A stretch of DNA of 62,134 bases, the filler included, from Squatina squatina (Eukaryota), in the NCBI GenBank assembly GCA_031763465.1. It is 4 parts of 4 records of this genome, joined end to end, with 100 filler letters (N's around TTAATTAATTAA, not from the genome) between each part and the next. Parts side by side here need not be neighbours in the genome. Positions count along the whole stretch, not along the records: positions 28,257 to 40,252 come from JARFOE010021047.1; 3 more parts are not named here. One strand, written 5' to 3'. The translations under genes and the position numbers were made by a program. Shown here piece by piece: positions 7,836-44,749 of the stretch. Below the pieces are notes generated by a model. The model had not been told where the DNA came from. It saw nothing but the letters and a program-made list of their open reading frames with translations, and made no database searches. Every line of letters begins with the position of its first letter. Position 1 is the first letter of the stretch.

Positions 7836-8073
7836 CTAAAGAGGAGGGAACAGAAAAAAGAAACTAGATTTATTAAAGCTAGAATATCAAACTATCGAGG
7901 ACTTCCAGGATGGAGAATTTTTAGGTAGGGTTCTGATTGCTGACCATTCCCATTCTCTGCTGACTCATGTTGGNNNNNNNNNNNNNNNNNNNNNNNNNNN
8001 NNNNNNNNNNNNNNNNNNNNNNNNNNNNNNNNNNNNNNNNNNNNNNNNNNNNNNNNNNNNNNNNNNNNNNNNN

Positions 8074-9233
8074 TGCGTGTGCGTATAGTGTGTGTATAAT
8101 GTGTGTGTAGTGTGTGTATACTGTGTGTGTCTTGAGTGTGTGTCTATAGTGTTTATATAGTGTTTGTACAAAATGTGTGTGTATAGTGAGTGTGTATAGT
8201 GTGTGCACAGTGTGTGTGTATGGAGTGTGTGTGTTTATAGTATGTGTGTGTATAGTGTGCATGTATAGGGTTTGTGTGTGTAGTGTGTGTGCAGAGCGTG
8301 TGTGCAGTGCGTGTGTGCAGTGCGTGTGTAATGTAAGTGTATAGTGTGCATGAATAGTGTATGTGTATATCATGTGCACTTAGTGTGTGTATGTATCATG
8401 TTTGTGTATCGTGTGTGTATCGGGTATGTGTAGTGTGTGCATATAGTGCATGTTTATATTGTGTTTGTTAATAGTGCTTGTGTGTATAGTGTGTATAGTG
8501 TGTGTGTATAGTGCGTGTGCATAGTGCATTTGAATAGTGTGTGTAGAGTGTGTGTGTAGTTTGTGCATAGTGTGTATAGTGTGTATGTATAGTGTGTGTT
8601 AATAGTGCTTGTGTGTATATAGTTTGTATAGTGTGTGTGCATAGTGTGCATGTTAATACTGCTTGTGTGTATAGTGTGTGTGCATAGTGTGTGTGTAGTG
8701 TGTGTGTAGTGTGTGTGTAAAGTGTATGTGTATTGTGTGTGTATAGTGTGTGTGTACAGTCTGTGTGCATAGTGTGTGTAGAGTATGTGTGTAGAGTGTG
8801 TGCATATAATGTGTGTGTATAGTGTGCCCCTAGAGTGTGTGTGTGGAGAGTGCGCGTAGAGTGTGTGCGTAGAGTGTATGTGTGTAGTGTGTGTATTGTG
8901 TGTGCATATAGTGTGTATAGTGCATGTTTATATTGTGTTTGTTAATAGTGCTTGTGTGTATAGTGTGTGTGTATAGTGTGTGTGTGCATAGTACCTGTGT
9001 ATAATATGTGTGTATAGTATGTGTGCATAGTGTATGTGTATAGTATGTGTGTAGAGTGTGTGCGTAGAGTGTGTATGTAGAGTGTTTGTGTATAGTGTGT
9101 GTATAGTGTGTGCTTGTGTGTATAGTGTGTTGTGTGTTGTGTGTGCGCGCAGTGTGTGTGTATAGTGTGTGTGCATAGTGTGTGTACGGTGTGTGTGTAT
9201 AGCGTGTGTGTTGTGTGTGTATATAGTGTGTGT
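8074..9233. repeat. GT/TA-rich low-complexity satellite
   Basis: Degenerate (gtgtgtata)n array. It produces spurious His/Thr/Tyr ORFs. Confidence 0.92.
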
Positions 9234-26300: not shown

Positions 26301-28200
26301 NNNNNNNNNNNNNNNNNNNNNNNNNNNNNNNNNNNNNNNNNNNNNNNNNNNNNNNNNNNNNNTTTCTACTGGGCAGGTTAGGTTGAAATGAACAGTTTAA
26401 GTGATTTTCACCAGGTCATCTGTGGAAAGAGGAAAAGAAAACTGGAGACTGAGATGAGTCTTTTCCAATGAGTTAACCAGGGCAGTGAACAACCATGAAA
26501 ATGACTGTGAACTGATTTGTGCTGTTCATTTGAAGAAGGACAGTTCAGTTGAATAGGAAGGTTGTTTTTTTTTGAGGCATGAGGCAGGCTTGTCAAAAAA
26601 GGGGTTTGAGTAAATATACCCCCAAAAGGTGACAACTTGTACAATTAAAGCTCGAGTTGCCTCAGCTCTCGCAATACCTCCATGGTTATATGTACTCCTC
26701 AGTGTGGTTCAGAGCCATGAGATCAGATCTCAGGTCAAATATTAGTCGGGCTGCTAAGATTGGTCTTAGTGCTATGAGTTAGGATGGGGAAGAAAAGAAA
26801 CCAGGTGGAGTTCCAATGAGTCGCCGCTGTCAAGTGTCCCGTGCTGCAGGGAGACACGCTCACCATGGTAGAATAACCTGTCGGCACCCACTGCCTGGAC
26901 TTGCAATGAAGAAGGAGCTAGAGCTAATGTAGCTGTGCCGCAGCCTCAAACGGTACCATTGCCAACGAAGAGTTTTTAAGAAACTTAAAAACAAATTAGA
27001 TGTGATAGCCCCAAACTTTGTTTTGCTCTTTGTAACATTTTTTCAAAAGCCCGGATAAAAGCAGATTCTTCACTTCCTGGTTCTGTAGCTGTGGGGATTC
27101 TGCATTGTGATTGGCTGCTTAGACAGCTTGTTGGCATCACAGCAGCTCACACTAGGGGACCCCATTAACTTAAACTGATCTCAACTGAATGTTGATAAAG
27201 CCAAACTTCTTGCCATAGAGATCGCAAAGTCTTTATGGGCAAATATCTTCGGGGCCAGAGGCGAATGCCTTTGCTTCTTTATTTCTTTATAGAGCAATTC
27301 TATTTATAAGTTTATTTACTGTATCTACAGTACTGTCAAAGATCTGCTGCTCTCTAATTACCTATCTCCACCAAGGTTTTGTCATGCTGAGGAAAATCAC
27401 TTGAAAGCAACTGGGTTGGGAATTTGAAAAAATACTAATATCGATTTTATCATTCCAGCTGATCTCAAAACGAATGCGCAGGTCATTGTAGTTTTATCAA
27501 AGGAGGGGAAAACAATTAATGAATCAATTCAAAGGATGGAATGAGAAAAAAGAAACAGCAAGCGTTAATTGTCTGGCAGTTATTTTATTCTGAGACTGAA
27601 ATATGGGTATGACAAATATAGTTATGTTAGCTGGATAAAATATTTATACCATATATACAAATGCAATTGCTACAGATGTCAGATGGAAGATAATAAAACA
27701 TATTTTCTTACAGAAATCTTGTAAGATTTAATGCATAAACAGGCAACACAGATATCAGGCACTTAATAGGAGATCAGAATCATTCTGTGCTAGATTGTGT
27801 TTGTTCTTAAGGTCAGTCACTTCCCTTTTGAGACCTAAAATGGTCCAAATGCCCAGACATGGAGAGCCATCAGGTGTTTCTCTACTTCTAATCACCTCAG
27901 CAGCTCCTTTCACATCTAATTAACTATTTATGAAACGACCCAGGTATCACGCTACTTTGCTAAACTTGTCCTTTACACAGCTGCCCATTTAGCAGAACTG
28001 TATTTTATTATTTTTCTCTCCAATTTTTGTCCAGTAACTTTGTCTTCTGAAGGTGCTGACACCTTACTAGCATATAGTTTCATGTGTGCTGGGTGCTCTA
28101 TGGTACCTTGTCTAAATGTCTACTTTTCATGTGTTAACTGTGACAATGAATTTTCANNNNNNNNNNNNNNNNNNNNNNNNNNNNNNNNNNNNNNNNNNNN

Positions 28201-28212
28201 TTAATTAATTAA
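28201..28212. other. Artificial scaffold linker TTAATTAATTAA
   Basis: N-padded six-frame stop linker. Confidence 0.95.
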
Positions 28213-28256
28213 NNNNNNNNNNNNNNNNNNNNNNNNNNNNNNNNNNNNNNNNNNNN

Positions 28257-29346
28257 CCACCCATCTAGATAAACTAGTTTGAAGACAATTGGCAACACCT
28301 GGGCCAGCATTTCCTTTCTGGCATATTCATTCAGAAGACAATTTGAAGAAGATGATTTGGTTAACAAAATCCAGGGTTTCGAAGCAATCACGCCCAGACA
28401 AAACACAGAAACAGTTTTTATTTCAAGTGTTGTCAAACAACAAGGGGGACAAAATTACAGTAATCCAGCTCGGTGGCCCAGACTTTCGGTCATCGAATAA
28501 ACATCGACAACACATATCCATAAGCAAACAAATCCCAGAAGAGGCAGTCTGAAAACCCCTGGAGAGCTATCCTCCTCCCCGATGAAAGTCAAGACCTCGA
28601 GGGTCCAGGATGAGCTGGGATTTGCTCAGGACTTTAAAAAGTGCATTTTAATATTTTAATACAGACGAGACAGAATTTGGGCGCGAACGGAATTCACAAT
28701 CCAAAGATTATAACTGGCTCTCAGCAAGAGGCTTTGTTAGCTTCGCTTCGCTTTGGTTTGAGCTTCGGGAGAAGAGATGATTAGATTATGGTTCATGAGA
28801 CTCGTTTCAGGACTTCGAGCTGCGCCCAGCTCCGCTTCACCAGCAACATCGAAACACACTCAGAGAAGAAACACCGTGATGGTCCAGTGGAGCCGTTCTC
28901 CACGGCACAACTGAACAGAAAGAGGACAACCTCCTGAGTAAGCAGACCGCTCGACAGAAATCGGAAAGGGCTTTGTTCGGGAAAATCCTTACCGGGCCAT
29001 CAAAGAAGGCATCGAGGTGCGAGACCTCCACCCTGCCGCAAGGACACCATCAGGGAGACCCACGAGACACCCAGCAATGCAGTTGCCTCGGATTGGTCAG
29101 CATGGCACCCATGGTCTACACCCTCCTGAACAGTTCGGGGCCCAAACAGGGGACTCAGCGGCCGCTCTCTTAGAATGTAGAATTAGTGCGTTAGTATTTA
29201 GCAGCCATTCGTATGGCCTGCCTAAATTGAGGCAGAATAAATTCGACCCGGGAATCGAAAAGCGCTGGTATTCCTCAGTTCTCCCTTTTTAACAGTGTGT
29301 GTACAGCGAATTGATACTAAAGCGAATAAAGCTCCTACTCTCTTTG
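28257..29346 (+). repeat. Probable 5' LTR (partial; start lies outside the scaffold, end and PBS would fall in the N gap)
   Basis: Non-coding, CpG-rich segment directly upstream of gag, with AATAAA at 29325-29330 just before the gap. No overlap with the 3' LTR stub could be shown. Confidence 0.45.
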
Positions 29347-29681
29347 NNNNNNNNNNNNNNNNNNNNNNNNNNNNNNNNNNNNNNNNNNNNNNNNNNNNNN
29401 NNNNNNNNNNNNNNNNNNNNNNNNNNNNNNNNNNNNNNNNNNNNNNNNNNNNNNNNNNNNNNNNNNNNNNNNNNNNNNNNNNNNNNNNNNNNCCCGAAAC
29501 GTCCATTTGCCTTTAAGTCCTTGTCACACGAACCACCAGACAGCCGACGGCTCTCGGCCTACACATATAAAGGTTCGAGTGTCTGGGCCGCTGTCGATCG
29601 CACAGGAAGACATGAGGTTGGGCAGGAGTGTGTGCGACTTACAGATTTTGGCACCCCCAGAGGGGACCTCAGGGCAAGGAA

Positions 29682-31900
29682 ATGGACGTAGAGGTTGTAG
29701 ATGAGCAAACGCTCCTGAAAGTGTGGGAACAGGCCATATTAGATTATGCCAATACCAAAGGTAACGTGGCTAGTACGTGGGTCCAAACCATCTACCGATC
29801 TGTGGACCCCAGGTTAGGGCCAGCCCGGTGGATGAGGTCGCAGGAACACACGCGCCCCTGCAGGAAGGCTGTGTGGCTGCTGTGCCTCCTTTAGCAGAAC
29901 CAGGTGCTCCGAGAGTGAGGGGAAGAGCTGTGGAGGAACACTGGCGCACAGAGCAGGAGGTCATTGCCAGAGATGTCTTCTCTCGCCAGTATTTGGAGAG
30001 GTTCCATAAACCTGAGCAGGATGTCAGGAGTCACGGGCAGAAACAACCCGGCTCCACACTGACCTGGTGGAGGGCAATGACTCGTTAAAGGCGTGTTGGG
30101 CAGAGAATCTAGAGCTCATGAAGAATGCATCTCAGATGGAAGGCCGCCTCAAATACGTAGGGGGTGCCTACCAGTTGATGCAGGATCAAAACTACGAAGC
30201 TGCTGATCATAGCCAAATTATGGATAAGATCCGGAGCTAAAGCTCGCCCTGTCAAAGGCCAGAGGTATAGTTTGCCATACGGCACTGGCAGCACTGCCGC
30301 TTGGGGACACGGATGAGCTCAGCGACAGTGAGGATACTGCTGGCCAGGTGAAAGCCAGCGCTAGAATCGCCCCCAATTCCCTGCGGCATTCATAGACCTT
30401 AAACCGGTCGGAGGACCCCGCACCCCAGGATTGCTCCCCAGGCCAAGACAGTACGGGAGAATCAACTAATGAGACGGGCGGCCGAACCCAGGGGGGATCC
30501 GGATCCCGGAGGAACATAGAAACAGGCGGCCGACCACCAGAGGTGTTCAGATCATGACGCATAGTTGGTCAGGCCTGCAGGGATGATGGCTGGGGCGAGC
30601 CCAGACCAGACTAGTTTTCAGACGAATCCCCGCAGTATGGTATCAACCTAGAGGAAGTGGCTCCCATGTGCTCAATAACCCAGTGGTGGTATGGTCCGCC
30701 TGGGCTTGCCGGAGGGAAAGGACCAGTTCTGGGGTAAAATCCTGTTCCCCATAGCGCCAGTCAGTTGCTAGCTTTGCTGGCCAACACCCCGCTGCTCCAG
30801 ATGTGCGGAGATCCAAGGATGCATTTTGACTGCATTAGTCAGCTGGTTGACGACCTTTCGTGCAATACGGAGGAGCACAACAAACTGTTGTGGCTATCTG
30901 GAGGGCACGATTCACCAGCGACGACCTCCACAAATCCCTGCACCTGGAGCTCACACACGTGATCTCCAAGCACAGATTCTAAAAGCCATGGGTTTCGACA
31001 TGGGCCGTCCATTTGCTCAAGTCGAAGTCACATGCCAAATGCCCACAGAAACCTCAGAGTAATTTGCGAACCGCTTATGGGCTGTTTATTCACAGTGCTT
31101 CGGCGGACGGAACCCGATGCGGCAGAACGTATGACCACCCGACCGATGCCAGTGGCTGCGGCTGCTGGTGTCTAAGTGTTTGCCTGAACTGTCCAATTCA
31201 GCGAGAACGTGTTTTGACCAATTAGCCGTCACCCACACAGAGGCGGAGGTGCTCCGGAGACTCGGTCTAGCCTACCGAACCCTCACTATCATTGACACCA
31301 CTCCCAAGCCTGAGCTTGGAAACTGTGGATGAATTCCTCCCCACGCCACAGCCGGCATGCCCGCACCAGGGGCCGCACAACCCCCGGTGTACATGTCCGG
31401 TCAGGTAGGCCCACTGATGGCTTCGTCAGCAGGAGCTCTTGCCGTTTACCTGCCGGCTTTCGGTGTTCTGCAGTATTTTGCACCAGGTGTAGTACAAACT
31501 GCACCACAGGGAGCCATGGCACCAACCTCTGTGTCTGCGGATCCAATTCACCAAGTACATGTAGTCACTCAGCCAGGAAACCCAAACCACCTTCCAGCTA
31601 ACCATCCGAACTGTCCACAACCGCAAGGTTACGCGTACCCGACATCACAGCCCACGCTCTACAGCTCCACATCACGACAGCTTGTGTCAGAGTAGAAACG
31701 GCGTCTACGACTCCACAGGCCAGCCAGGTCCCGATTCCCGCCCCGGCATTCAGTATACAGGGGGAGGAAAAAAAATGGGAATGGAGGCAGGAGGGTAGGA
31801 CAGGCACGGCCGATGTGTTAAGGGTGCGGCAGGCCGGGGCATTAGGGGCAGAAATGCCCAAATGCCGGGAAACTGCCCAATAAAGCAGCAAACCGAAAAC
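29682..31900 (+). pseudogene. gag: gag (disrupted)
   Basis: MHR-like CQMPTETSE*FANRLWAVY at 31033-31089, a Pro/Gln-rich linker at 31357-31695, a basic stretch, then a CX2CX4HX4C knuckle C*GCGRPGH*GQKC at 31816-31857. The start codon is a guess. Confidence 0.75.
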
Positions 31901-32134
31901 TCCCAGTTAAAATGGTGCAAATAGGGAGCCCCATTGTACCACGGCTGGATCAGCAGGTGAGGATAGCCGAGATCCTGCTGGTCATGAAGGAATCGTGTGG
32001 GAAAAGGCCCCATTGTGACCGTCTGCCCAGCCGCCACATCCCACACACAAAACGCTCCATCCTAGACATCACCCCAGTAGCTCGGCTCGACAAAGCCTGT
32101 TCTGCTTGGCCACTTCTGCTAGGAAAGGTGGGAT

Positions 32135-32451
32135 TGCCCCTGTGTAGAGGTGGTGGTAGAGGGGCACCTCGGGGATTCCCTGATCCACACTGGGATGCCG
32201 AGCATGGTGCTCCAGGATCCCGACTCCGAGAACTCCCCTCTTTTGAGCTGGACCCCATGTATCTTGGCAGGGTTGACGTGAGACGAGCAGGCTGGTGTCA
32301 TGTCCAATCATTGCCCATCAATTTAGGGGAATTACAGATGCACTGGAAAACCGTCTTGGTCCAGTGGAGTCACTGCGGGTCAGGGGTGATCGGGGCCGCT
32401 TTTCGGCTGTCCCATCGGGTCATCCTGGACCAGGAGAAAAACTACTTTTGA
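32135..32451 (+). pseudogene. pro: Retropepsin-type protease (disrupted)
   Basis: Frame 2 reads PCVEVVVEGHLGDSLIHTG (LIDTG with GAC>CAC at 32186), then ILAGLT. Frame 1 then reads LPINLG...GVIGAAFRLSHRVILD, equivalent to ILGxDFL. Confidence 0.7.
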
Positions 32452-32609
32452 GGCAGCAGGACAGGATGGAACAATCGTACAGTGACTGTAATCCCAAGGG
32501 AATGATGAGGAAAGGGCTCGTGTGTACGATGCAGCCCAAGACCAACTACAACCATGAAGCCATGATCATGGACTGCCTCCGCGCATTCCACAGTGTCCTC
32601 AGGGGACAC

Positions 32610-35600
32610 CTTGGTGCATTCGCCACACACAAGCACAATTGTGGACGAATGACCAGGCGGAGAACCGGATAAAGGGGGAACCGATGTCCCGGCCTATCCA
32701 GCAGTATAATTTCCCGCGAGAGGCTGAAGCAGATTTGAACACTGCCCTAGAGTCCCTGACTGGCAGGTGGTTCTCAGGCTGATAGCGACCCATGTTAAAA
32801 CTCTTCTGTGGCCGGTCAGAAAACCTGATGGCTCGTGGCGAGCAACCGTGGACTATCAGGTCCTGAATAAGAACCACGCTGCTTGTGCCCACACTGTGGC
32901 ACTCCAGGCCCATTTGATAGCGACAATCCCCGACACCACCACGGTCTTCTCAGCACAGGTTTGGAGCATCCCATTGCGCCTAGAAGACCAGTACAAATTT
33001 GGGTTTGCATTCCACGGCCAACAGTATACGTGGACGGTCCTTCCAAAAGGCGTCCCCAACAGTCCATCCATATTTCACCAGAGTATGGCGAACGTGTTAA
33101 AGCCGTTCAGCAAGGCTACTCAGCTGGTGCAGTATGTGGACGACCTCCTGCTGTTCACAGAAAGCGAAGAGGAGCATGTGCTATTGCTGGAGGAGCTGCT
33201 GGAATTGCTCTACCAGAGTGGGTTGAAAGGCCCAAGTAGGTCAGTGGGAAGTGAAATTTCTTGGGCTGAAAGTACGAGGAGGGGAAAGAGCCAGTGATGA
33301 AGCCAGACGGGAAGCTGCACAGCAGTTACCCTTACTCAGCGATGTGACGGGGATTAGGTCCTTTCTGGGGCTGACTGAGTGCTCCTGGAACTTCAACCAG
33401 GGCTAACCGACGACAGCTGTAATCCTGCTCTGACTCTGCATAAATGTGTCACCCGGGAATGGGATACTTCCTTCCAAGACGCTGTCGAGCAATTGAAACG
33501 TGACCGACAGTGTGCCCCAGCCCTGGGAGCCATAAATGCAAAGAAAGAGTTCTTCTTAGAGGTGGCAGCCAGTGAGGACAGCTTAGGAGCGGTTCTGATG
33601 CAGGAACGCCACAGCACCTTGAAGCTAGTGGTATAAGCAGCGCGGGTAGTCACAGGAGTCGAGAAGAGGTACTAGAACTGTAAACGGCAACTTCTGGCCA
33701 CTTACTGGGCTGTAAAGCATTTTCAGCCCGACACGAGCCTTTCCTCCATCACTATGCTCATGAACCACACACCAACAGCAATGTTGTTGGACGGGCAGAT
33801 AAAGGATGGGACCGTGAGCATAACGCACTGGACCCTGCTCCTGGCACAATACCCCATCCATGTCCAGGTGCTAGTGGAACCCCGGCTAGCTTTAAATTTG
33901 TTATAAATAGAAAACCCACACATATGTACAGTGGAAGGTGTGTGGGATCAGGATCTGGGTTTTAAAGCCGGCTTATGTCACGGCGGACGGGACATATATA
34001 TATAAACGGGTCGAGCTTCATCTTGCATGAGAAGAGGCTCACTTACTGTGGAATGTATGACCCTCAGACCAGGGTGTCCAGGGTGATTAAACTTCCAACT
34101 GAGATGGGCACTCAACACACCGAACTGGCTGCAATCGCATAAGTGGTTACCCACCCTCATCTGTCCCCCACACCGACAGCATATGCTCACACTCCATGTT
34201 TACGTGCAACACCTGCACGGAGTAACTGGTTCTATGGTGCAGACGGGGATTCACGTCCGCGGACGGGAGACCCCTAACAACAGCACCCCTCCCAACGAAA
34301 ATCCTGCAGGTCGTACAGGGAGGGGAGGGTCACTCCCTTCATAACATCAGGGCACAAACAAAACTCGAGCACAGGTGGGAAGGCCGACGAGCTGGCCATG
34401 GAAGGGGCACGCACGTGGGATGAGTGGGATCCTTATGCCTCTGACCACATCGCTGCACCCTTTGCCTTGCTGCAAGGGCAGGCACCGTCCACAGGGGTCC
34501 TTTTAGCCCAAGACCTCCGATCATTACAGAAGGGAGACCCAAAGCTCAAAGAAACCATGTTAGCCAAGGGGGCCGGACAGGCAGCCAAGGCACCGTTTGT
34601 GGCAGACAAGTTCACCTTATGGGAGGGAATGCTGTTTAAGGGGAGAGCATTTTGTGCTCCCGACCGAGCACCGGAGAGATGTTCTGAGGTTGGCACACGG
34701 GGGAACAGGGGCAGGACACCACGGTGCTGAGTCCACGTGGGCAAGTGTGGAAGAAGTTGGCTGGTGGCCGAAGTTGCGGGAGGAGGTGAAGGAATATTTC
34801 GCAGAATGCCTCATATGCGCCGCAAATCACACTGACCCTCAGCGACGGAAGGTCCCCATGGGACACATACACCGGGTCGAAGTACCCTGGAAGTCCCTCC
34901 AGACAGAGTTCATTGATCCCTTGCCACTGAGCAGCAAGGGGAATAAACAGTGCCTGATAGTGGTAGATACGTTCACCACGTGGTTTTAAGCATTCCCCTG
35001 TAAGACAGTCACAGTGCGAGTGATGGCGCACACACATGTCCGGGAGGTCCTCTCCCGAGGGGGCTGCCACAGATGGTCGAATCTGAACACGGGGACTCGC
35101 TTCACAGGGCAAGTGATGCAGGCCACAATAAAACTGCTCGGTATTGAAGGGAAGTGGCATGTGTCTCACAACCCACAGTCATCAGGGATAGTTGAGCGCA
35201 TGAACTGGACCCTAAAAGAGAGATTGAGGAAGGATACCGGTGAGTCCCCGCGCCGGTGGGACGGATCCCTTCCCCTCATTCTCCTCGGGATCCGAGCTCG
35301 CCCTTCCCGCAGCACGGGACACTCCCCACATGTTCTAATGACGGGATGGGAGAGGAGAACACCAGTGCATGTTCTCGCCCCGATCTGGTGCGTGGCACAA
35401 CTGGAGCAGCTGACTCCTGACAGGTTTGTCAGTCATCTGCACGAAGCTCTCCGCCACTTGCACCAGAATGCCGCCAACACCATTGGCCGAACAAAATGTG
35501 TCAGAGCCCAGCCGCCCAAAGACATCGGATATTGGGGATAAGGTCATGGTGAGGAATTACGCCAGGCTTGGTGCATGCAGACCCCTTTATTCTGGATTGT

Positions 35601-35887
35601 ATAACATCGTCGATAATGTCTCTCCCATGATGTATGCCGTGAAGCCCCCGAGGGGAAGAAATTGGTTGCACATCAACCAGTGCAAGCATTATACCCCAGC
35701 AAGAGAGAAAAGAGTGTGGGAGGATCCTCGATCTGGCCCAGATCACTGGATAGCCGACTGTGGGCTGCCAAGTACAACATGGGAGGAAGACACGGGTGAT
35801 CCACAGGAGGCAGTGGAGCACGGAGGAATGCTGCCTCAGATCGGGCCTGGCTGGGATCCACCTTCGTTCCCAGGACCTGGCAACTAA
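32610..35887 (+). pseudogene. pol: pol: RT, tether, RNase H, integrase (disrupted)
   Basis: RT: LWPVRKPDGSWRATVDYQVLNK...YTWTVLPKGVPNSP...QYVDDLLL (YVDD at 33133-33144). Tether at 33541-33860. RNase H at 33990-34410. Integrase: H-GH...CLIC, IVVDTFT, HNPQSSGIVERMN, and IGDKVMVR...YSGLYNIV. Confidence 0.92.
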
Positions 35888-35970
35888 TCTGGCGAGGGAG
35901 CGGCAGAGAACGGAGTCCTCACTTGTTGCTGGGACGGCACCCGCTTCTGGTGGAAGCCGACGCCAGCACA

Positions 35971-36004
35971 ACATTTTTCTCTTTCTTTGTTTGGCAGAAC
36001 CATG
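35971..36004 (+). promoter_or_regulatory. Probable env splice acceptor and start codon
   Basis: Polypyrimidine tract tttttctctttctttgtttggcAG (AG at 35996-35997), followed 4 nt later by aaccATGa opening a hydrophobic signal-peptide-like stretch. Confidence 0.65.
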
Positions 36005-38353
36005 AAGACCTCAAGTGGACAAGAAGCAATAATAGCACTCTGGATCTTCCTCACCAACTTCACATTTTATGGACACGCCCGAAGGGGCGACACCGAACGC
36101 TCACTGGTATTTGGCTGCACCGGAGGCTATAGCTCATGGTCACTGCACGAGGTGGGGGGCGACTCACCAGACAGAACGTGCTGGCACTTAGAGGACGATG
36201 GCCCGGGTGGGTAGGCTCAAATTCCACCAGTTTTATGGGAGGTCCAGATTTCACTTTCGGGGAGGCCTCGGTCAACTGCCCCAGGGTGCGAGTGATCCTG
36301 CAAAGGGTGAGGGTAGCTGATGGCAGAAGGGTCTGCCAGCGTTGCAAAGGCGAAATTCCCCGGGACAGTTGGTGGTGGCTTCGAAGGTTGGACGCACATA
36401 AGGCAGAAAAGACTGCGGCCTGGGAAATGTTAGGGAACAACACTTAGTGGAATGTTATCCCAGATCAGGAGGGAGCACAACTGTGTTGGAATAAGTAGTG
36501 GACCAAAGAGCAGGGGCTGTACATATGCGTTTGTGGGTACCTGACAGTTTGTTCCATTGGGGTTCCCACAGCATTCCACCGACAGTGGCAGGATGAGGGA
36601 AACGTTATTGGCTTGCACAGGAGTATGGCGACAAGCAATGCATTTAATCCCCTGGGGGTTTTACATGCGACTGAGAACCTGACACAGAAGATTGGACGAC
36701 ACCCCACCCCCGACCGGTTAGGGATGATGAGACTCACTGCCCCCACACCAACACCGACCCCGAGAATGGCCGAGTGCTGATACCAAATAAGAAAGTACTA
36801 TTCCACGAGGTCCAGTACCAAGTGGCCTCAGTGGTGTTGAACATGACCCAGGTCCAGCTACCACCCTGCTGTCCCACAAAGGCTGGACGTTTATAAGAGC
36901 ACTGCTCCGCGATATGTACCAGCAGTTCTTTGAACTCGATTACAGTGATTTAAAAACACCCCATGTCTACCCCAAGGACACCAATCGACCCGGGAGTGGG
37001 AAACATGGCCTGATCAACGATGCTGCCACTATGTTCAACACGGGAACGTCTGTAATATATAGGTTAGATGAAGCTGCTTTAGGCATACAAATAAGTAAAC
37101 TCAAAGGCCAGATGCGAAAGGTCCTTGAGGAAGGGAATAATATTGTAACTCAGGAACTGCATCAGGTTCAAGCCATGATGATCCACCTGCGGGAGGTGAT
37201 AACACAGCATGAATCCCACGCACATACCATCAATGCCCTTATAACCAAAGACAACAATGCCTCAGTGGAAGCGACGCGGAATGAAGCATGTGTGTTTTAT
37301 GGCAGTCGGTTATTGAAATAGGGATGCAGTATTTGAAGGACCTGAGAGTGGGTTGCGTTCCCTCATTGATAACTAATCGCCATCTGATGGCTATCATTCC
37401 GTACTGGAACAACCTGAGCCCTTGACAGATCAGAGCTATAGCAGAGGCCTACCCAATCGCCATGGACTGTGGTAAGTCCAACCACACTGTGATGGGGGTA
37501 GTATTACGGATTCCTGTGCTGGACGATCCCAGCATGTGTGTTCCATATTGGGGTGATCAGGGACGGGGTCTATATGAGGCACAGGAACGTCCCACCCTTT
37601 GTTGTCCAGTGGAAGACCAGGATGGTGGGCACCAATGTGAAGTGGTGCTGCGTGCATGGGAGAATTTGGTTCTCTGCCCCCAGCACATCAACCCTTTTGA
37701 CAATCTGGTGTGTGGGTTTTAATCACAAAGCGTTGAGCCGCTGCAATGCAACATGGAGGCGACTGCAGGCGAACACATATTGCCTCAGGTGGCATACCAG
37801 AGCAACGGAACGTACTGGGTCACATCTTCAGTGATAAGATATCGGTTCCACCGGGACACGATATGTCCGGTGACCGCGTGTACTTTCTGTTGTAAATCGC
37901 AGGCCAATTTTCAGCTTGTTAACTGCCTCATCCTCCCAATCCGTGACCTCACCATCACCATCACAGCCAACAGCTCCATTGCAGACCTGCATGATTACGT
38001 CGCCACATTGGGGTACGTAATTCCCCCGTTACTGGAACACCTCACGGCTCTCCTCAAAGCCGTTGAAGTGAGCCGAACTCACTTCTACCAGCTTGCGCAA
38101 ACCAATGGGAGAGCAGAAAGGCCACAGCCGCGACCGGAGTGGGGGATTCTTGTGGGATTTCTGGATGAACGTGGAAATATCAACCTGGATCACAATCGCC
38201 TCGTACACTCTGGTCATCATCCAGTTGGTATTGGTTATATAACTGCTAAAATGTCTTGCCGAGGCCACCAACAGGCAACACGGTGGTATCGCCTCATAGC
38301 AACGTGGGACATCCGTGTCAGAGCCCTTCATCTTCCCCAGCTTTGATTTGTAA
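36002..38353 (+). pseudogene. env: env-like glycoprotein (disrupted): signal peptide, Ig-like domain, F-like class I fusion ectodomain, TM anchor
   Basis: N-terminal AIIALWIFLTNF. Decayed cleavage site RPGSGKH|GLINDAATMFNTGTSV followed by a long heptad-like helix. Cys-rich block (LCPQH...VCG...CNM...NGTYWV...CPV...FC). W-rich juxtamembrane segment and TM WITIASYTLVIIQLVLVI*LLKCL at about 38186-38257. Confidence 0.78.
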
Positions 38354-38828
38354 GAACCGACAGCATCCAACTCCCCGGTACTACCCTTCTAAACTTGTCT
38401 TTTTCCTCTTTTCACTGGTTATTTATATCAAGTCTACATTAAATAAAGGTAAGCATGGGTATTTTGTGCTGTTAAATTATATAGAAGGCACTCATAATAT
38501 GAGGTGCCGATTGCGGGGAAACTTTTAGAGGTATCCGTTTTTTCCTACTTTGTACAATACGGATCTCTGTGTAGTGTATGTATTACTAATTATGTTCATC
38601 AAGTTTGGAGTGCCCTAAAGAAGATCAGTCGCCCATCCCACCCAAAGACAGGGAAGGGGAGCGGGGTGGATCCCCGGGGAACCCAACAACACAGCTTAAG
38701 AGCCTGAGTCTAAGGGACGGTGGGGAGGTAAAATTTGGTTTATGAGAGACTGCTGCAGAGTCCGATGACACCAATTTTGGCGTATTCCTTCACCTGAGGG
38801 ATCAGGAAGCTGAGGCAGCTTCACCCTC

Positions 38829-38999
38829 GAAGGGGCATCTGTAAGAATCGGGACAAAATGGTGTGTGTTTCAGATCATAAAACCAGGACCACGCAACATG
38901 GGACAAAATGGTAGACATGGGTTCGGAAATTTAAAACACAGAACACGAACCGGCAGGAAGTGAATTACTGCAAAACTCTGTCAATCAAAGAGACAATAC
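38829..38999 (+). repeat. Polypurine tract and start of 3' LTR (truncated by CR1)
   Basis: gaaggggcatc followed by TGTAAG at 38840. Tandem GGACAAAATGGT motifs at 38851 and 38901. The sequence switches to CR1 at about 39000. Confidence 0.55.
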
Positions 39000-40252
39000 A
39001 AGGTAGTAATCTCTGGATTACTACCAGTGCCACGTGCGAGTCAGAGTAGAAATAGGAGGAATATTCAGATGAATAGGTGGCTTCAGAAATGGTGCAAGGG
39101 GGAGGGATTCAAATTCGTGGGACATTGGAACCGGTTCTGGGAAAGGTGGGACCAGTAAAACCCGACAGTCTGCACCTGGTCAGGAGGGGAACAAATGTCC
39201 TGGGGGGAGTGTTTGCGCGTGCTGTTGGGGAGAGTTTAAACTAATATGGCAGGGGGATGGGAACGAATGCAGGGAGACAGAGGGACGTAAAATGTGGGCA
39301 GAAGCAAAAAGTAGGAAGGAGAAAAGTAAAAGTGGAAGGCAGAGAAATCAAGGGCAAATATCAAAAAGGGCCACCTTACAGCATAATTCTATAAGGGCCA
39401 AGAGTGTTATAAAAACAAGTCTGATGGCTTTTTTGTCTTAATACGAAAAGCATTCGTAATAAGGTAGATGAATTAAATGTGCAGATAGTTGTTGACGGAT
39501 ATCATATAGTTGGGGGTACGGAGACATGGTTCCAGGGTGACCAAGGCTGGGAGCTGAACATTCAGGGGTATTCAATATTCAGGAAGGTCAGACACAAAGG
39601 AAAAGGAGGTGGGGTAGCTTTGCTTTTTGGAGAGGATATTCACGCAACAGTAAGGAAGGACATTAGCTAGGATGGTGTGGCATTTGTATGGGTAGAGCTG
39701 CGAAAAACTAAGGGTCAGAAAACGCTTTTGGGAGTTGTGTGCAGGCCACCAAACAGTAGTAGTGAGATTGGGGATGGAATCAAACTGGAAATTTGGGATG
39801 CATGCAATAAAGTTACTGCAGTTATCATGGATGACATTAATCTACATATACATTGGGCTAACCAAATTGGTAATGCTACTGTGGACGAAGATTTTCTGGA
39901 ATGTATACGGGATGGTTTTCCAAACCAATAGGTCGATGAACCAACCAGAGAGCAGGCAATCCTAGACTGTGTGTTGTGTAATGAGGAAGGAATAGTGAGC
40001 AATCTTGTTGTGCGAGGCCCCTGAGGCAAGAGTGATCATAATATGGAAGAATTCTTCATTAGGATGGAGAGTGAGATCGTGAATTCAGAGACAAGTGTTT
40101 TAAACCTAAAAAAAAACGGTAACTTTGATGGTATGAGACGTGAATTGGCTAGGATAGACTGGCGAGTGAAACTTCAAGGGTTGACGGTGGATATGCAATG
40201 GCAAACATTTAAAGATCACATGGATGAACTACAAAAATTGTTCATCCCAGTC
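39000..40252 (+). mobile_element. CR1-like LINE: ORF1 SGNH-esterase C-terminus and ORF2 AP-endonuclease (disrupted)
   Basis: VVISGLLPVPRAS...WLQKWCKGEGFKFVGHW...LHL, then SIRNKVDEL...TETW...QGYSIFRKVR..KGGGVALL...EPTREQAILD...SDHN. Confidence 0.88.
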
Positions 40253-40308: not shown

Positions 40309-41772
40309 NNNNNNNNNNNNNNNNNNNNNNNNNNNNNNNNNNNNNNNNNNNNACAGCGACATTACCGTGGAAAAGCCCAAGTTTTTGTCAGTTTCACCGA
40401 TTACACTGATTGCCGACTATGGGAGGGGCGGGGGGAGGGAGGGAGGTGCAGCCCACGGTGAAGCCAGTGTCGGAGCAGTCACTGACCACAATTGACCCAC
40501 ATTTAGATGCGCATGCGCTAAATCCTGAAGTCGCGGTCAGTTTCAAAGCAGTAACAACAGTGAACACAGCACCAACAGTAGACTATAGGACAATGTACAC
40601 AAATAACTTATAGAACCATTTTCATGTTTAGCTATTTTTGGTACACTATGAGACCCTGAATGTGGATTACTGCTTGCTTGCCATCCCTCAGGCTCTCTCA
40701 ATGTNNNNNNNNNNTCCAGAATTCTCTGCTGCCATCTCGGCTGGTATGCAAACAAAATGATTCTCAATAAGGAATAAGCTGCCTCTATTCAAATCTTTGA
40801 TATTGCTAAGTAGTCTGAGTTTGTCACCATCACTATGGTAACAGATTAGGGTATCAGAAGCTTGTACCAACAGTGCATCTTTCCTGTCTTAAATAAAATA
40901 AAACGGCACTGTTCCTTTGAATTTTAAGAATAATGGAAAGAACTATCAAAGTGATAATTGTACCCAACTGTAACCAAATTGTTTGCTCATCCTTGACACA
41001 AACGAAAACTGGAAGATTGTGAACACAAGTGCTTATAAATGTTGAACTCTATACAGGAGGGTAGTGACCAAGTGATGTAGTGAATAAAATACTTTTGCAG
41101 GTATGGGGAAAAAAGAGGCTTACACCAAATGTGGAATCTGCACCTACCAGCGACCCGGAGAAATCTCAAGTGCTGTCACAAGAAAAGGCAACACTTTGCA
41201 CTTTTCTTTCCTCAACACTTGATTTGCAATAACTTTAATTAAATACACCTTTCAATTAATCACAGCCCAGGCTGTTGTCCAAGGCATGGTGGCTATAGTG
41301 TTACATAATGCTTCCTAGTATACAGAGACTGACATATGGAATTTCCTCTATGGCTCTGATTTCTTACAGGTGTTTTGTGCCAAATTGAATCCTTCACCTT
41401 TGAAACTGGTTACATAGTATTGTCGTGCAGCTATACTTTAGTACTTGGATAATAGCCCCTGTTCACAATGGTGCGGAGTTGTAGGCGGAGCAGCAATTTT
41501 AATATTTGATTACTAAGTAATGAGCTAGGTTAATAAGTTTTTTTATGTGTTGAAACAATCATAGAAAACATGACNNNNNNNNNNNNNNNNNNNNNNNNNN
41601 NNNNNNNNNNNNNNNNNNNNNNNNNNNNNNNNNNNNNNNNNNNNNNNNNNNNNNNNNNNNNNNNNNNNNNNNNNCCTATCTTAAAGTATTGAGGTAAGGC
41701 AAGTGAATTACATGACCGAACAAGTGAACACAATGAGACACGGTGTTGATGCCAAATCCTCTTTGTCCTTAC

Positions 41773-41951
41773 CTCTCTCGATCCTGCTCAAGGAGGTTGG
41801 TGAAATCATCACTCTTGTTCATGTAATCTGTGTGCTTGTGCTTCTCATTTTCCAACTCATACACAGTACGCCTGTGACACTTTTCAGCCAGAAGCAGCTG
41901 CTCCAGCATTCGCCGATATGTCTCTCTGTGCTTCTCCACCAGCAGGTCCAG
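41773..41951 (-). CDS. FILIP1: FILIP1 exon (CortBP2 coiled-coil region)
   Basis: ctgcag/gtaagg boundaries on the minus strand. Reads [60 protein letters not shown], which matches FILIP1 rather than FILIP1L. Confidence 0.92.
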
Positions 41952-43545
41952 CTGCAGCCACAGAGAAGAAATATTACAATCACCTCTGGCCTGTTTGACC
42001 ACCTCTGACTGGATTCAATCCCTAGAACTTTGGTATTTTCAGCCCACCGAAAGATCTTCGCAAACTCCAGGGGCTGATTTCCCCCTCCCTGACATTTCTA
42101 CCCCCTCTCCTGCCGGTGCTGACATTTCCTGAGGGTGAAGACCAAGTGGCATTTCTTTATGCCTGAACTTAAGTGTCAGCCATTCAATGGGAGCAGACAT
42201 TACAGCCAAGCCCGATCCTGTCCTCCTCCTTTCCAGCCAAGCAGTTCCTNNNNNNNNNNNNNNNNNNNNNNNNNNNNNNNNNNNNNNNNNNNNNNNNNNN
42301 NNNNNNNNNNNNNNNNNNNNNNNNNNNNNNNNNNNNNNNNNNNNNNNNNCCATTGCCCTTACCCAGAATTTATGGATGAGGTCAGGCGGGTGCAGATCTC
42401 CCGCCACTATACTTCCAGTTGGGATTTTATACAGGCAGTAAAGCTATGCTTAATCCAGTTTGGAGTGGGCACCAGTTCTCAGCACTCTGACAGCCAATGA
42501 AGACAGGGACTATGAGAAAATAACACATCACACCAGTATAGTTGCTCTTGTACGATTAGGGTTGCAAAAGTCAGGCAGCTCTGCACTGCATTTGAGTTGG
42601 CCCATACCTGACCTGGTAATCCATGATGCAGTTATTAATTAGAAAGTGGAGACATTTTCCCATTCCTTCGTGCAGCCATTCACCTTGATAAACATGTGCT
42701 CCACATAACATCTCCCTCACAACTTTATAGCATTGTTTCATTTCTACCTGACTATGAATGGGTTTGTCCTTTTCACATGGGTTTGTTAAGCACTTGGAGA
42801 CATTTGCCTTTTTTTTAAATTTCCTGCCCACGCAAGTTTGTTCTGCTCTGCTGCCAAAGCACTCTCTGGGATGATGTCACTTTTCTCAGAACAGGGAAAT
42901 CAGGCAGGGAGTTTTGTTNNNNNNNNNNTAATTAATTATCTGCATGTTGGCCTTCAGCCAAAGAATATCACAATGCAAGTCCCTGAACATTAACCCTAAC
43001 AGTATGGTATTTCTGAATGAGTGACAAGTGGACCTTTCTGGTAAGCAATCACAATAGCCCTACTTACACAAGGTCAGTCGTACTACTTGTTTTGTCGGCG
43101 AGATTAAAGTTAGGCAATGAACGTGACAGCCTGTTTGCATGTCACTGGTGCTTTGTGTTATCAAAAAATCCGTTGGCGCTTTCTGCTAGATCTTAGTAAT
43201 TGTGGGATTTCTCAGATATCTTGTGTGCACACAGATCCAAAAATGTTAAGAATTAATGTTGGAGACAGAATCTGTCAGTGAGCAGCTAGCTTCCATGATA
43301 CATTAACATTGGGAAACGTAAACAGCCCCTTTTTTTCAATGACTATTTACTTGTTCTCTCCCCTGCCCAGATTCTTTCCCTTCCTCCCCTGAAGGATGTG
43401 CCCATGCAAAGGTATGCTCCAATAGCAGTGTCAATTGCCCATCTTCATGCAACGTAGGTGGACAATCATAGTCGAGACAATTCTGTTGTCACCCAAAGTC
43501 CATGTATGCGCAACATTCCAACAAGGGTCATTGGATAACATTTGC

Positions 43546-44150
43546 GGGGGGAAATTGCGTACTGCCATGGTTGGGGGCGGTAACAGCTGCAGGATGGGAC
43601 TTCCTGCGCCAGACGCATGAGCTGAATTGGGCTTACCGCCCCCGAGAGGAAGTGGAGCGCAAAATCTCACGTTCCACTTCCTCTCGGGGATGGGACCAAG
43701 GCGCTAGCCAATGTGAATTTTCCAGTGCTATGCAGAGGGACGTGTAGCGCTGGTGGGAAAACAGGGCCCTCCTCTTCCATTAAAAGGGAGGGCACGCTGC
43801 CGACTCTGCAGTGGGGTGAGGGGCCACTACTTCGCCACCGGGGAATGGGGTGCCATGGCAACAGCTCGGCACAGAAACGGAGAGCCGGGCTGCACCATGG
43901 CGTCATGGACCCCATGAATTCCACAAGGCAAGGCCGCTACCGGTAAATCGGCCATTTTAAATAAAGCGCTAGCCGCACCTCCCCTTTAATTTTCGCCCTG
44001 CGAAAGGCCTACGGGCCCGGTACGTGTCCCGTGAAGCTGCCGCTGTCATCGCCCGTGGCAGCCTCATGTATCGCTACCGAATTTCTGCTCCGGGGTGAAA
44101 ATGGGTCGCATCGCACATGGATGACATCGTCATCGCTGATGCAGCGGCCC
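43546..44150. mobile_element. GC-rich Harbinger-type MITE fragment
   Basis: Begins gggggaaattgc. CpG-rich, with ccccttta motifs like the element at 21085. Confidence 0.45.
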
Positions 44151-44152
44151 GA

Positions 44153-44330
44153 GGCACTATCGGCAACAGCGGGGCACTATCGGCAACAGCGCGGTACTAT
44201 CGGCAGGAACAGGGCGATATCGGCAGGAACAGGGCAATATCGGCAACAGCGGGGCACTATCGGCAGGAACAGGACACTATCGGCAGGAACAGGGCAATAT
44301 CGGCAGGAGCAGGGCAATATCGGCAGGAAC
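44153..44330. repeat. 20-bp minisatellite (CGGCARSARCRGGGCAMTAT)n, about 9 copies, running into a gap
   Basis: Directly visible tandem units cggcaacagcggggcactat and cggcaggaacagggcaatat. Confidence 0.9.
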
Positions 44331-44749
44331 NNNNNNNNNNNNNNNNNNNNNNNNNNNNNNNNNNNNNNNNNNNNNNNNNNNNNNNNNNNNNNNNNNNNNN
44401 NNNNNNNNNNNNNNNNNNNNNNNNNNNNNNCTAGCCTCCCCAGCCCGAAACACTCATCCAAGAGAACAGATGGGCCACCTGCTTCCAGGCTTCTGCTCAC
44501 ACTGATCCAATGGCTGTTAGAAGCTGTGTGATAATGTTCAGCTGACAAATGTTCATTCTGCATTTGCCCTATGGACAGTGTTAAGATTGGCAATTCAACA
44601 GAATGGCCGACTTTGGTTGTGGGACAAGTTCCACCGTTCCATGTCACTACGTGTTGCAGTTTCAATGTTTTCTGCACCACCATTTGGCAGCCGTTTGTAA
44701 CCTACAATATGTGTTTGCAAATGTTCAAAGTATTGTACATGCTTCTCAC

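Follow-up and report, generated by a model that had tools for sequence, protein, structure and literature searches.

A segment in the N-terminal part of an endogenous retroviral envelope protein (Env) from Squatina squatina was identified as a lineage-wide Env module, likely with a V/I-type immunoglobulin (Ig) fold, and the reading that we favor, by a modest degree, is that it is a predicted built-in attachment domain on what is probably an F-type fusogen. The segment is found in env position after reverse transcriptase (RT), dual RNase H and integrase, belongs to one ORF with the fusion part in its relatives, has conserved motif residues and occurs in many copies. As a head on this Env it is real, lineage-wide and moderately supported, and the Env is probably of the F type.

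The window, that is, the whole stretch of DNA analyzed (62,134 nt including filler; assembly GCA_031763465.1), consists of four joined parts, of which positions 28,257-40,252 are from JARFOE010021047.1; adjoining parts are not necessarily neighbors in the genome. A GC-rich block at about 29.5-38.5 kb contained a gag-like region, RT, two RNase H domains, integrase and an env-like gene, in the gag-pol-env order of a multi-copy endogenous retrovirus, and every gene was broken in the window copy. This copy is dead, with stops and frameshifts throughout, and gives no sign of domestication. The gag and pol regions were assigned as follows.

29682-31870, plus strand: broken gag-like region (by eye from the three-frame translation; other copies cover the region in four runs)
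32728-33294, plus strand: reverse transcriptase (Pfam RVT_1, E=4e-20; YVDD at 33133)
33379-33903, plus strand: first, Ty3-like RNase H, or tether (Pfam RT_RNaseH_2, E=3e-9; RT_RNaseH, E=5e-5)
33987-34400, plus strand: second RNase H, frameshifted (tblastn with whale-shark protein P0005; 3′ end by eye)
34564-35700, plus strand: integrase with zinc finger, core and C-terminal part (Pfam Integrase_H2C2, E=5e-15; 3′ end by eye)

Pfam gave no gag match for the window ORFs, and a degraded CCHC-like knuckle was recognized by eye near 31813-31860 in the gag-like region. The best PDB matches of the RT (E about 2e-21) were chains entitled Pr125Pol or peptidase A9-RT-RNase H, names that we take to denote foamy-virus Pol. 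The RNase H part of P0005, a protein that itself matched Pfam RNase_H (E=4e-5), was aligned by tblastn to 33987-34270 (E=3e-19), and the integrase region matched PDB integrases at E=1e-7.

The env-like gene spans from an ATG at 36002 to a hydrophobic helix at 38177-38240, and its reading frame changes near 36127-36136, 36702-36729, 36881-36896, 37264-37342 and 38100-38153. Its parts were delimited as follows.

35976-35999, plus strand: likely splice acceptor, with a pyrimidine tract and CAG end directly 5′ of the env ATG (putative function)
36002-36076, plus strand: env start and likely signal peptide in frame 2 (translation; aligned with the hydrophobic N-termini of relatives)
36077-36276, plus strand: conserved pre-Ig segment with one Cys and a GRWPGW motif (tblastn with P0014 and P0004)
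36277-36588, plus strand: V/I-set Ig-like domain with two in-frame stops (motif, relatives, profiles and models)
36589-36750, plus strand: post-Ig segment and Pro-containing linker, with a frameshift near 36702-36729 (tblastn with relatives)
36751-37006, plus strand: F2-like part with a degraded cleavage site at its end and a frameshift near 36881-36896 (alignment with relatives)
37007-38100, plus strand: F1-like ectodomain with several stops and frameshifts (tblastn with P0002, P0009 and P0004; alignment)
38177-38240, plus strand: transmembrane-like helix in frame 2 (hydropathy up to 2.09 over 19 residues; aligned with the C-terminal hydrophobic stretch of P0004)

Since the signal peptide is read in frame 2 and the Ig-like domain in frame 1, the frameshift near 36127-36136 parts them. 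The canonical residues of the Ig-like segment are Cys 36343, Cys 36526, Trp 36376 and Tyr 36520, and four further conserved Cys are encoded at 36277, 36334, 36484 and 36550. The cleavage site at the end of the F2-like part is R-x-x-R or R-x-R-R in relatives, and the F1-like parts comprise a fusion-peptide-like stretch, a heptad region, a Cys-rich region and a second heptad region. The pre-Ig segment was predicted with very low confidence as beta strands, and it may form a second small domain together with the post-Ig segment. An RGD tripeptide was observed just after the likely signal peptide (36080-36091) in the window copy and in P0014, and was absent from P0004 and P0013; from its sequence, it could be an integrin-binding motif or a chance occurrence.

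An earlier note on this DNA had described an Ig motif read through two stop codons, and the following of its particulars were borne out by translation of frame 1: Cys codons at 36343 and 36526 are 61 codons apart, Trp codons at 36370, 36373 and 36376 follow the first Cys at a distance of 9-11, TAG stops are located at 36445 and 36496, and both AQL and EQGLYIC (36508-36528) are present. A V/I-set skeleton pattern (G..[VILA]...C, followed by W 6-16 later and [DE].G.Y.C 30-60 later), which was devised after the sequence had been seen, matched once, at 36322-36528, when all six frames of the window were scanned, and not at all in 300 base-shuffled windows. The Cys-Cys distance was 61 in the window copy, P0014 and P0004 (Ig range, 55-75), the C-strand Trp was conserved, and the F-strand motif was DEGMYVC or DEGIYMC in relatives and EQGLYIC in the window. 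The surroundings proposed for the domain had to be redrawn. APTPTPT (36739-36759), formerly regarded as the linker, is an off-frame reading of codons that open the fusion part, because the alignments of P0014 and P0004 depart from frame 1 at about 36708-36711 and run in frame 3 from 36702 and 36729; the actual Pro-containing linker is located at about 36700-36745. Nor does the Ig-like domain lie directly between signal peptide and linker, since it has about 65 conserved residues, among them a single Cys, on its N-terminal side and about 50 residues on its C-terminal side.

Relatives were collected by phmmer with the fusion piece 36878-37318 as a query against 1.84 billion proteins (E<=0.001). 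Twelve matches were obtained, of which 11, all from sharks or a skate, were retained; the other, P0007 (1082 aa), is a repeat protein and was discarded as a chance match. P0004 from Rhinoraja carries the Ig-like segment, F2-like part, basic cleavage site, heptads and transmembrane helix in one annotated protein. A further search with the first 270 residues of P0004, confined to proteins of 283-903 aa sharing 5-mers, yielded five env-type proteins among 1104 candidates. The complete Ig segment is present in P0004, P0013 (skate, 96% identical) and P0014 (54%), and just its edges are covered in P0015 and P0003; as P0004 and P0013 are 96% identical, these represent two independent intact relatives (P0004/P0013 and P0014). 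The window segment was 35% identical to P0004 over 199 aa (E=7e-34), and the identity between P0014 and P0004 was 54% in the pre-Ig, 49% in the Ig, 42% in the post-Ig and 71% in the F2 part. Neither the window head nor the F piece of the window had relatives in word-index searches, scans of metagenomes, viral contigs and phages likewise returned none, and no RNA datasets carrying the element were listed.

In P0004, P0013 and P0014 the Ig-like segment and the fusion part share a single ORF, as the earlier note had supposed, and the segment is not specific to one copy, being present in relatives from other organisms and in many copies in four DNA runs. The placement of an Ig domain before an F-like part was therefore upheld as to the arrangement, whereas the F-likeness was recognized by eye and was matched by no tool.

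A second shark lineage (P0011, P0010 and P0012) has the same fusion part with a shorter Cys-rich head, which showed no match to the Ig profile, and these sequences make an exchange of heads between the two env lineages possible. P0008 also falls in the lineage with the Cys-rich head, whose organisms are Mustelus and Chiloscyllium. In P0003, a sawshark gene model entitled 'Niban 1-like', part of env is joined to a host protein; this is probably a chimera of gene prediction and possibly a real fusion transcript.

The fusion part of the relatives starts with GP-x-x-GLVL and continues with a basic site followed by G-[ILV]-[IV], heptads and a C..CP..CG..C pattern. No Pfam or PDB match to F was obtained for the window ORFs, the 12 relatives or the fusion-part profile, and the F piece retrieved unnamed or unrelated clusters only from the Atlas of language-model features. 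The fusion-part profile had one coiled-coil match in PDB, which was judged to be due to chance. No retroviral TM match was obtained from Pfam in the window ORFs or the 12 relatives, and inspection of the alignment by eye revealed no CX6CC after the heptad region, so that the Env does not qualify as gamma-type, a kind marked by CXXC in SU, an immunosuppressive domain and CX6CC in TM. Compared by eye with the lokiretrovirus Env, the downstream part is probably an F-type fusion protein.

The Env of lokiretroviruses is characterized by a likeness to Mononegavirales F, with an RXKR site, a fusion peptide, a coiled coil and a transmembrane helix, and it was tied to PF00523 in the consulted part of the report of Wang and Han (PMC7947760). 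The element resembles lokiretroviruses in its gag-pol-env order and in having a tether as well as an RNase H, and by eye the tether segments are alike; the Envs likewise share, by eye, a signal peptide, a GP-x-x-G-[IV] start of the F2-like part, a basic cleavage site, a hydrophobic peptide, a heptad region, a Cys-rich region and a transmembrane helix. The element Env differs by about 220 extra residues, containing the Ig-like domain, between the signal peptide and the GP motif. In 22 of the 23 lokiretrovirus Env entries consulted in the supplement of PMC7947760, the signal peptide leads straight into the GP motif with no head between them, and the remaining entry is incomplete at its N-terminus. 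The Env of the element works like a lokiretrovirus-type F Env plus an added head. Upstream of YVDD, by contrast, the RT of the element was by eye nearer to the foamy and epsilon rows than to the loki rows in the part of that supplement that was compared. Judging from these sequences, the lineage may be a mosaic, with a foamy/epsilon-like RT and a lokiretrovirus-like tether and env, or an unplaced clade. In the F-type fusogens of paramyxo- and pneumoviruses, baculoviruses and errantiviruses (PF00523 and related families), a cleavage site, fusion peptide, heptads, Cys-rich region and transmembrane helix follow one another as they do here; an N-terminal Ig module is not described in the text of 10.1101/2023.10.26.564294 as far as it was accessible ('immunoglobulin', 0; 'Ig-like', 0).

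The following course is proposed for this Env. A spliced mRNA would be translated, and cleavage of the product at the basic site would yield two chains, head plus F2 and a membrane-anchored F1; the head would be retained on the particle via an F2-F1 link, as is known from paramyxovirus F. The partner of the Ig-like head would be a protein on the cell surface, with a further member of the Ig superfamily as the likeliest candidate, and this binding would lead to fusion without a separate attachment protein. The head is the likeliest attachment module because it is N-terminal, more variable than F2 and swapped in the sister lineage. Paramyxoviruses use a separate attachment protein, and to our knowledge F-type fusogens usually depend on such a protein or have no known receptor module. 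An Ig-like head that is fused to an F-type Env and replaced in a sister lineage points to a part on which the choice of cells would depend, and it is a small, foldable domain suited for testing. Such a head would moreover place an Ig-superfamily domain within a retroviral-type Env, in a host group scored as lokiretrovirus-negative in the table of PMC7947760 (three Chondrichthyes genomes screened, none positive). More tentatively, and at less than even probability, a hitherto undescribed cartilaginous-fish retrovirus lineage may be envisaged whose RT is distinct from that of lokiretroviruses and whose F-type fusogen bears an exchangeable head, an Ig V domain of ancient cellular origin in one branch and an unrelated Cys-rich domain in another. 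On this view the Env would unite attachment and fusion in one protein, with a cell-adhesion fold grafted onto an F protein.

Searches of the openly accessible literature turned up no description of an F-type Env, or of a retroviral Env from sharks, that bears an Ig domain. The literature compared, in the portions accessible, was PMC7947760, PMC4422223, 10.1101/2023.10.26.564294, 10.1101/2021.11.23.469661, PMC9040795, PMC12440569, PMC13709493, PMC10072453 and PMC10699275, and the word 'immunoglobulin' had no occurrence in the accessible portion of each text queried for it. According to the portion consulted of 10.1101/2023.10.26.564294, work on vertebrate endogenous retroviruses is to be published separately.

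Ig-like domains of other viruses and of cells were also compared with the head. Herpes simplex gD, a V-like protein that binds a receptor and sets off a fusogen distinct from itself, resembles the element Env in being a viral surface protein whose N-terminal domain is Ig-like. The same likeness is seen in vaccinia haemagglutinin, an Ig-domain glycoprotein of a large DNA virus according to the part consulted of PMC2189399. Both are separate proteins of large DNA viruses, whereas the domain of the element is fused to a retroelement fusogen. Cellular V-set and I-set domains (CRTAM, CD8-alpha, basigin and antibody or TCR V domains) have in common with it the Cys-Trp-Cys skeleton and the D/E-x-G-x-Y-x-C motif; the domain of the element differs from them in an identity of at most about 24% in structure alignments, four extra conserved Cys and a Trp-rich E-F segment. 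The earlier note had proposed that a host Ig domain was captured, but no donor surfaced: the best cellular Ig matches were weak (E 0.005-0.04), and neither the head search nor the PDB profile search (best E=0.005) identified a parent gene among cellular Ig genes. The domain is likely to have come from a cellular source in the distant past.

Instead of attaching the particle, the head could be an immune decoy or modulator that mimics a host Ig-superfamily ligand or receptor, with attachment residing elsewhere in Env; we regard this as unlikely. In its favor, the head has its best sequence matches in two immune receptors, CRTAM and CD8-alpha; large DNA viruses possess glycoproteins with Ig domains, vaccinia haemagglutinin being one (PMC2189399, in the part consulted); and lokiretrovirus Envs function without a head. 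However, the matches are weak and unspecific (E 0.005-0.04), the extra conserved Cys and the larger conserved head are easier to reconcile with a component of Env adapted over a long time than with a newly acquired mimic, and a different head occupies the same slot in the sister lineage.

Sequons for N-glycosylation number three to five in the heads of the window copy and of relatives, and conserved Cys occur beyond the canonical pair. Both would be in keeping with a structural role, in which the head has no receptor of its own and serves as a glycosylated cap, or as an aid to folding, that covers the fusion machinery and restrains it before triggering. Such a role is improbable, as the head is absent from published F-type Envs, the F ectodomains in the consulted portion of 10.1101/2023.10.26.564294 having four domains, and is less conserved than F2.

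The fold was analyzed with the three complete relatives (P0004, P0013 and P0014). All three were matched by Pfam Ig_3, at best with E=5e-4 and 20.9 bits, under the cut-off of 30, and V-set and I-set profiles were not among the Pfam matches listed. A profile of the relatives retrieved 19 PDB matches at E<=10, of which 15, including the top ten, belong to the Ig superfamily, with CRTAM (E=0.005) and CD8-alpha (E=0.01) as the best; whole P0004 had no match among PDB sequences. In the Atlas, three unnamed clusters were followed by Ig clusters at 0.91-0.92 and the ten best named clusters were all in the Ig clan, where the named matches share 155-167 features, below the guide value of 170, and one third of shuffled proteins also show clan agreement. 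The AlphaFold2 model of the three-row alignment (mean pLDDT, 51.7) has six beta strands in the order A′-B-C...D-E-F, no helix and no G strand. With this model, Foldseek retrieved antibody, TCR and VNAR entries (best E=0.01, none at E<=0.001), and VIA gave a best Z of 6.8 (rmsd 3.4, 89 aligned residues; none with Z>=8), its 50 rows being nearly all V-type apart from one phage baseplate protein and a few titles without a named chain. The BFVD fold search returned nothing at E<=0.001. Cys 36334 and Cys 36484 would presumably stand side by side on strands B and E of a V domain, and by this analogy their position fits an added disulfide.

The window Ig segment alone, read through the stops, had no Ig match in Pfam or PDB sequences; a Pfam zinc-ribbon match of the window head was spurious, and two PDB sequence-search rows for it were chance matches. 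The Ig fold claimed in the earlier note is thus sustained by the weak profile and fold matches of the relatives and not by the window copy alone.

Given the subthreshold Pfam score and the low-confidence models, the module might be a virus-made beta-sandwich that resembles Ig without descent from the Ig superfamily, which we consider quite improbable. The model of whole P0014 was poor (pLDDT, 36), and phage tail or neck proteins occupied the top seven VIA rows for it (Z 5.6-6.8), with V domains after them, which, together with the lack of a host donor, favors such an origin. Against it, the identity in these rows was 14-24% for V domains and 4-11% for phage proteins, antibody Fv chains ranked first for the same model in Foldseek, the G..V...C / W / D-E-G-x-Y-x-C skeleton has the right spacing in 3/3 complete relatives, and sequence profile, language-model features and fold searches all indicate a V/I-set domain. 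A second Ig domain suggested by a tandem Fv alignment was rejected (TM about 0.2, rmsd 13-21). With moderate support overall, the segment 36277-36588 very probably has an Ig fold.

Four DNA runs of one study cover the element along its full length. The region 36240-36620 was covered by 114-234 contigs per run in all four, with no indel listed; summed contig depth in these runs is not equal to copy number. Both stop codons differ from nearly all of the depth at their positions, so the stops are not common to the copies. From the best 40 of 83 copy differences listed, 38 were classed, and none of the 38 alters C36343, W36376, G36514, Y36520, C36526 or the four extra Cys. An excess of silent changes was not seen among the copies (12/38, against an expected fraction of 0.27). 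The missing Ig match of the window copy alone might suggest a motif that arose by chance or an insertion that no other copy has. This reading is refuted to near certainty by the in-frame segment and fusion part of relatives in other organisms, by the coverage in 4/4 runs without a listed indel and by the 0/300 shuffles.

At the ends of the element, no LTR pair was found in the window; assembly gaps occupy 28157-28256 and 29347-29492, and a very high-copy repeat extends onward from about 38830-39000. A possible 5′ LTR, without a matching 3′ copy, may lie within 28257-29346, between the gaps, with AATAAA at 29325-29330. A 3′ LTR interrupted by this repeat may begin near 38830-38846, where a purine tract precedes TGTAAG. 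The repeat, at 38830-40250, has a summed depth of 24,000-122,000 and contains, by eye, pieces of LINE-like endonuclease-type ORFs. No tRNA genes were found. Short ORFs on the minus strand at 41685-42014 resemble a host coiled-coil exon, and the element may therefore sit in an intron of a host gene in the opposite orientation. Tandem arrays were observed at 8064-9000 and 44133-44332, with units of 11-13 nt and 20 nt, respectively.
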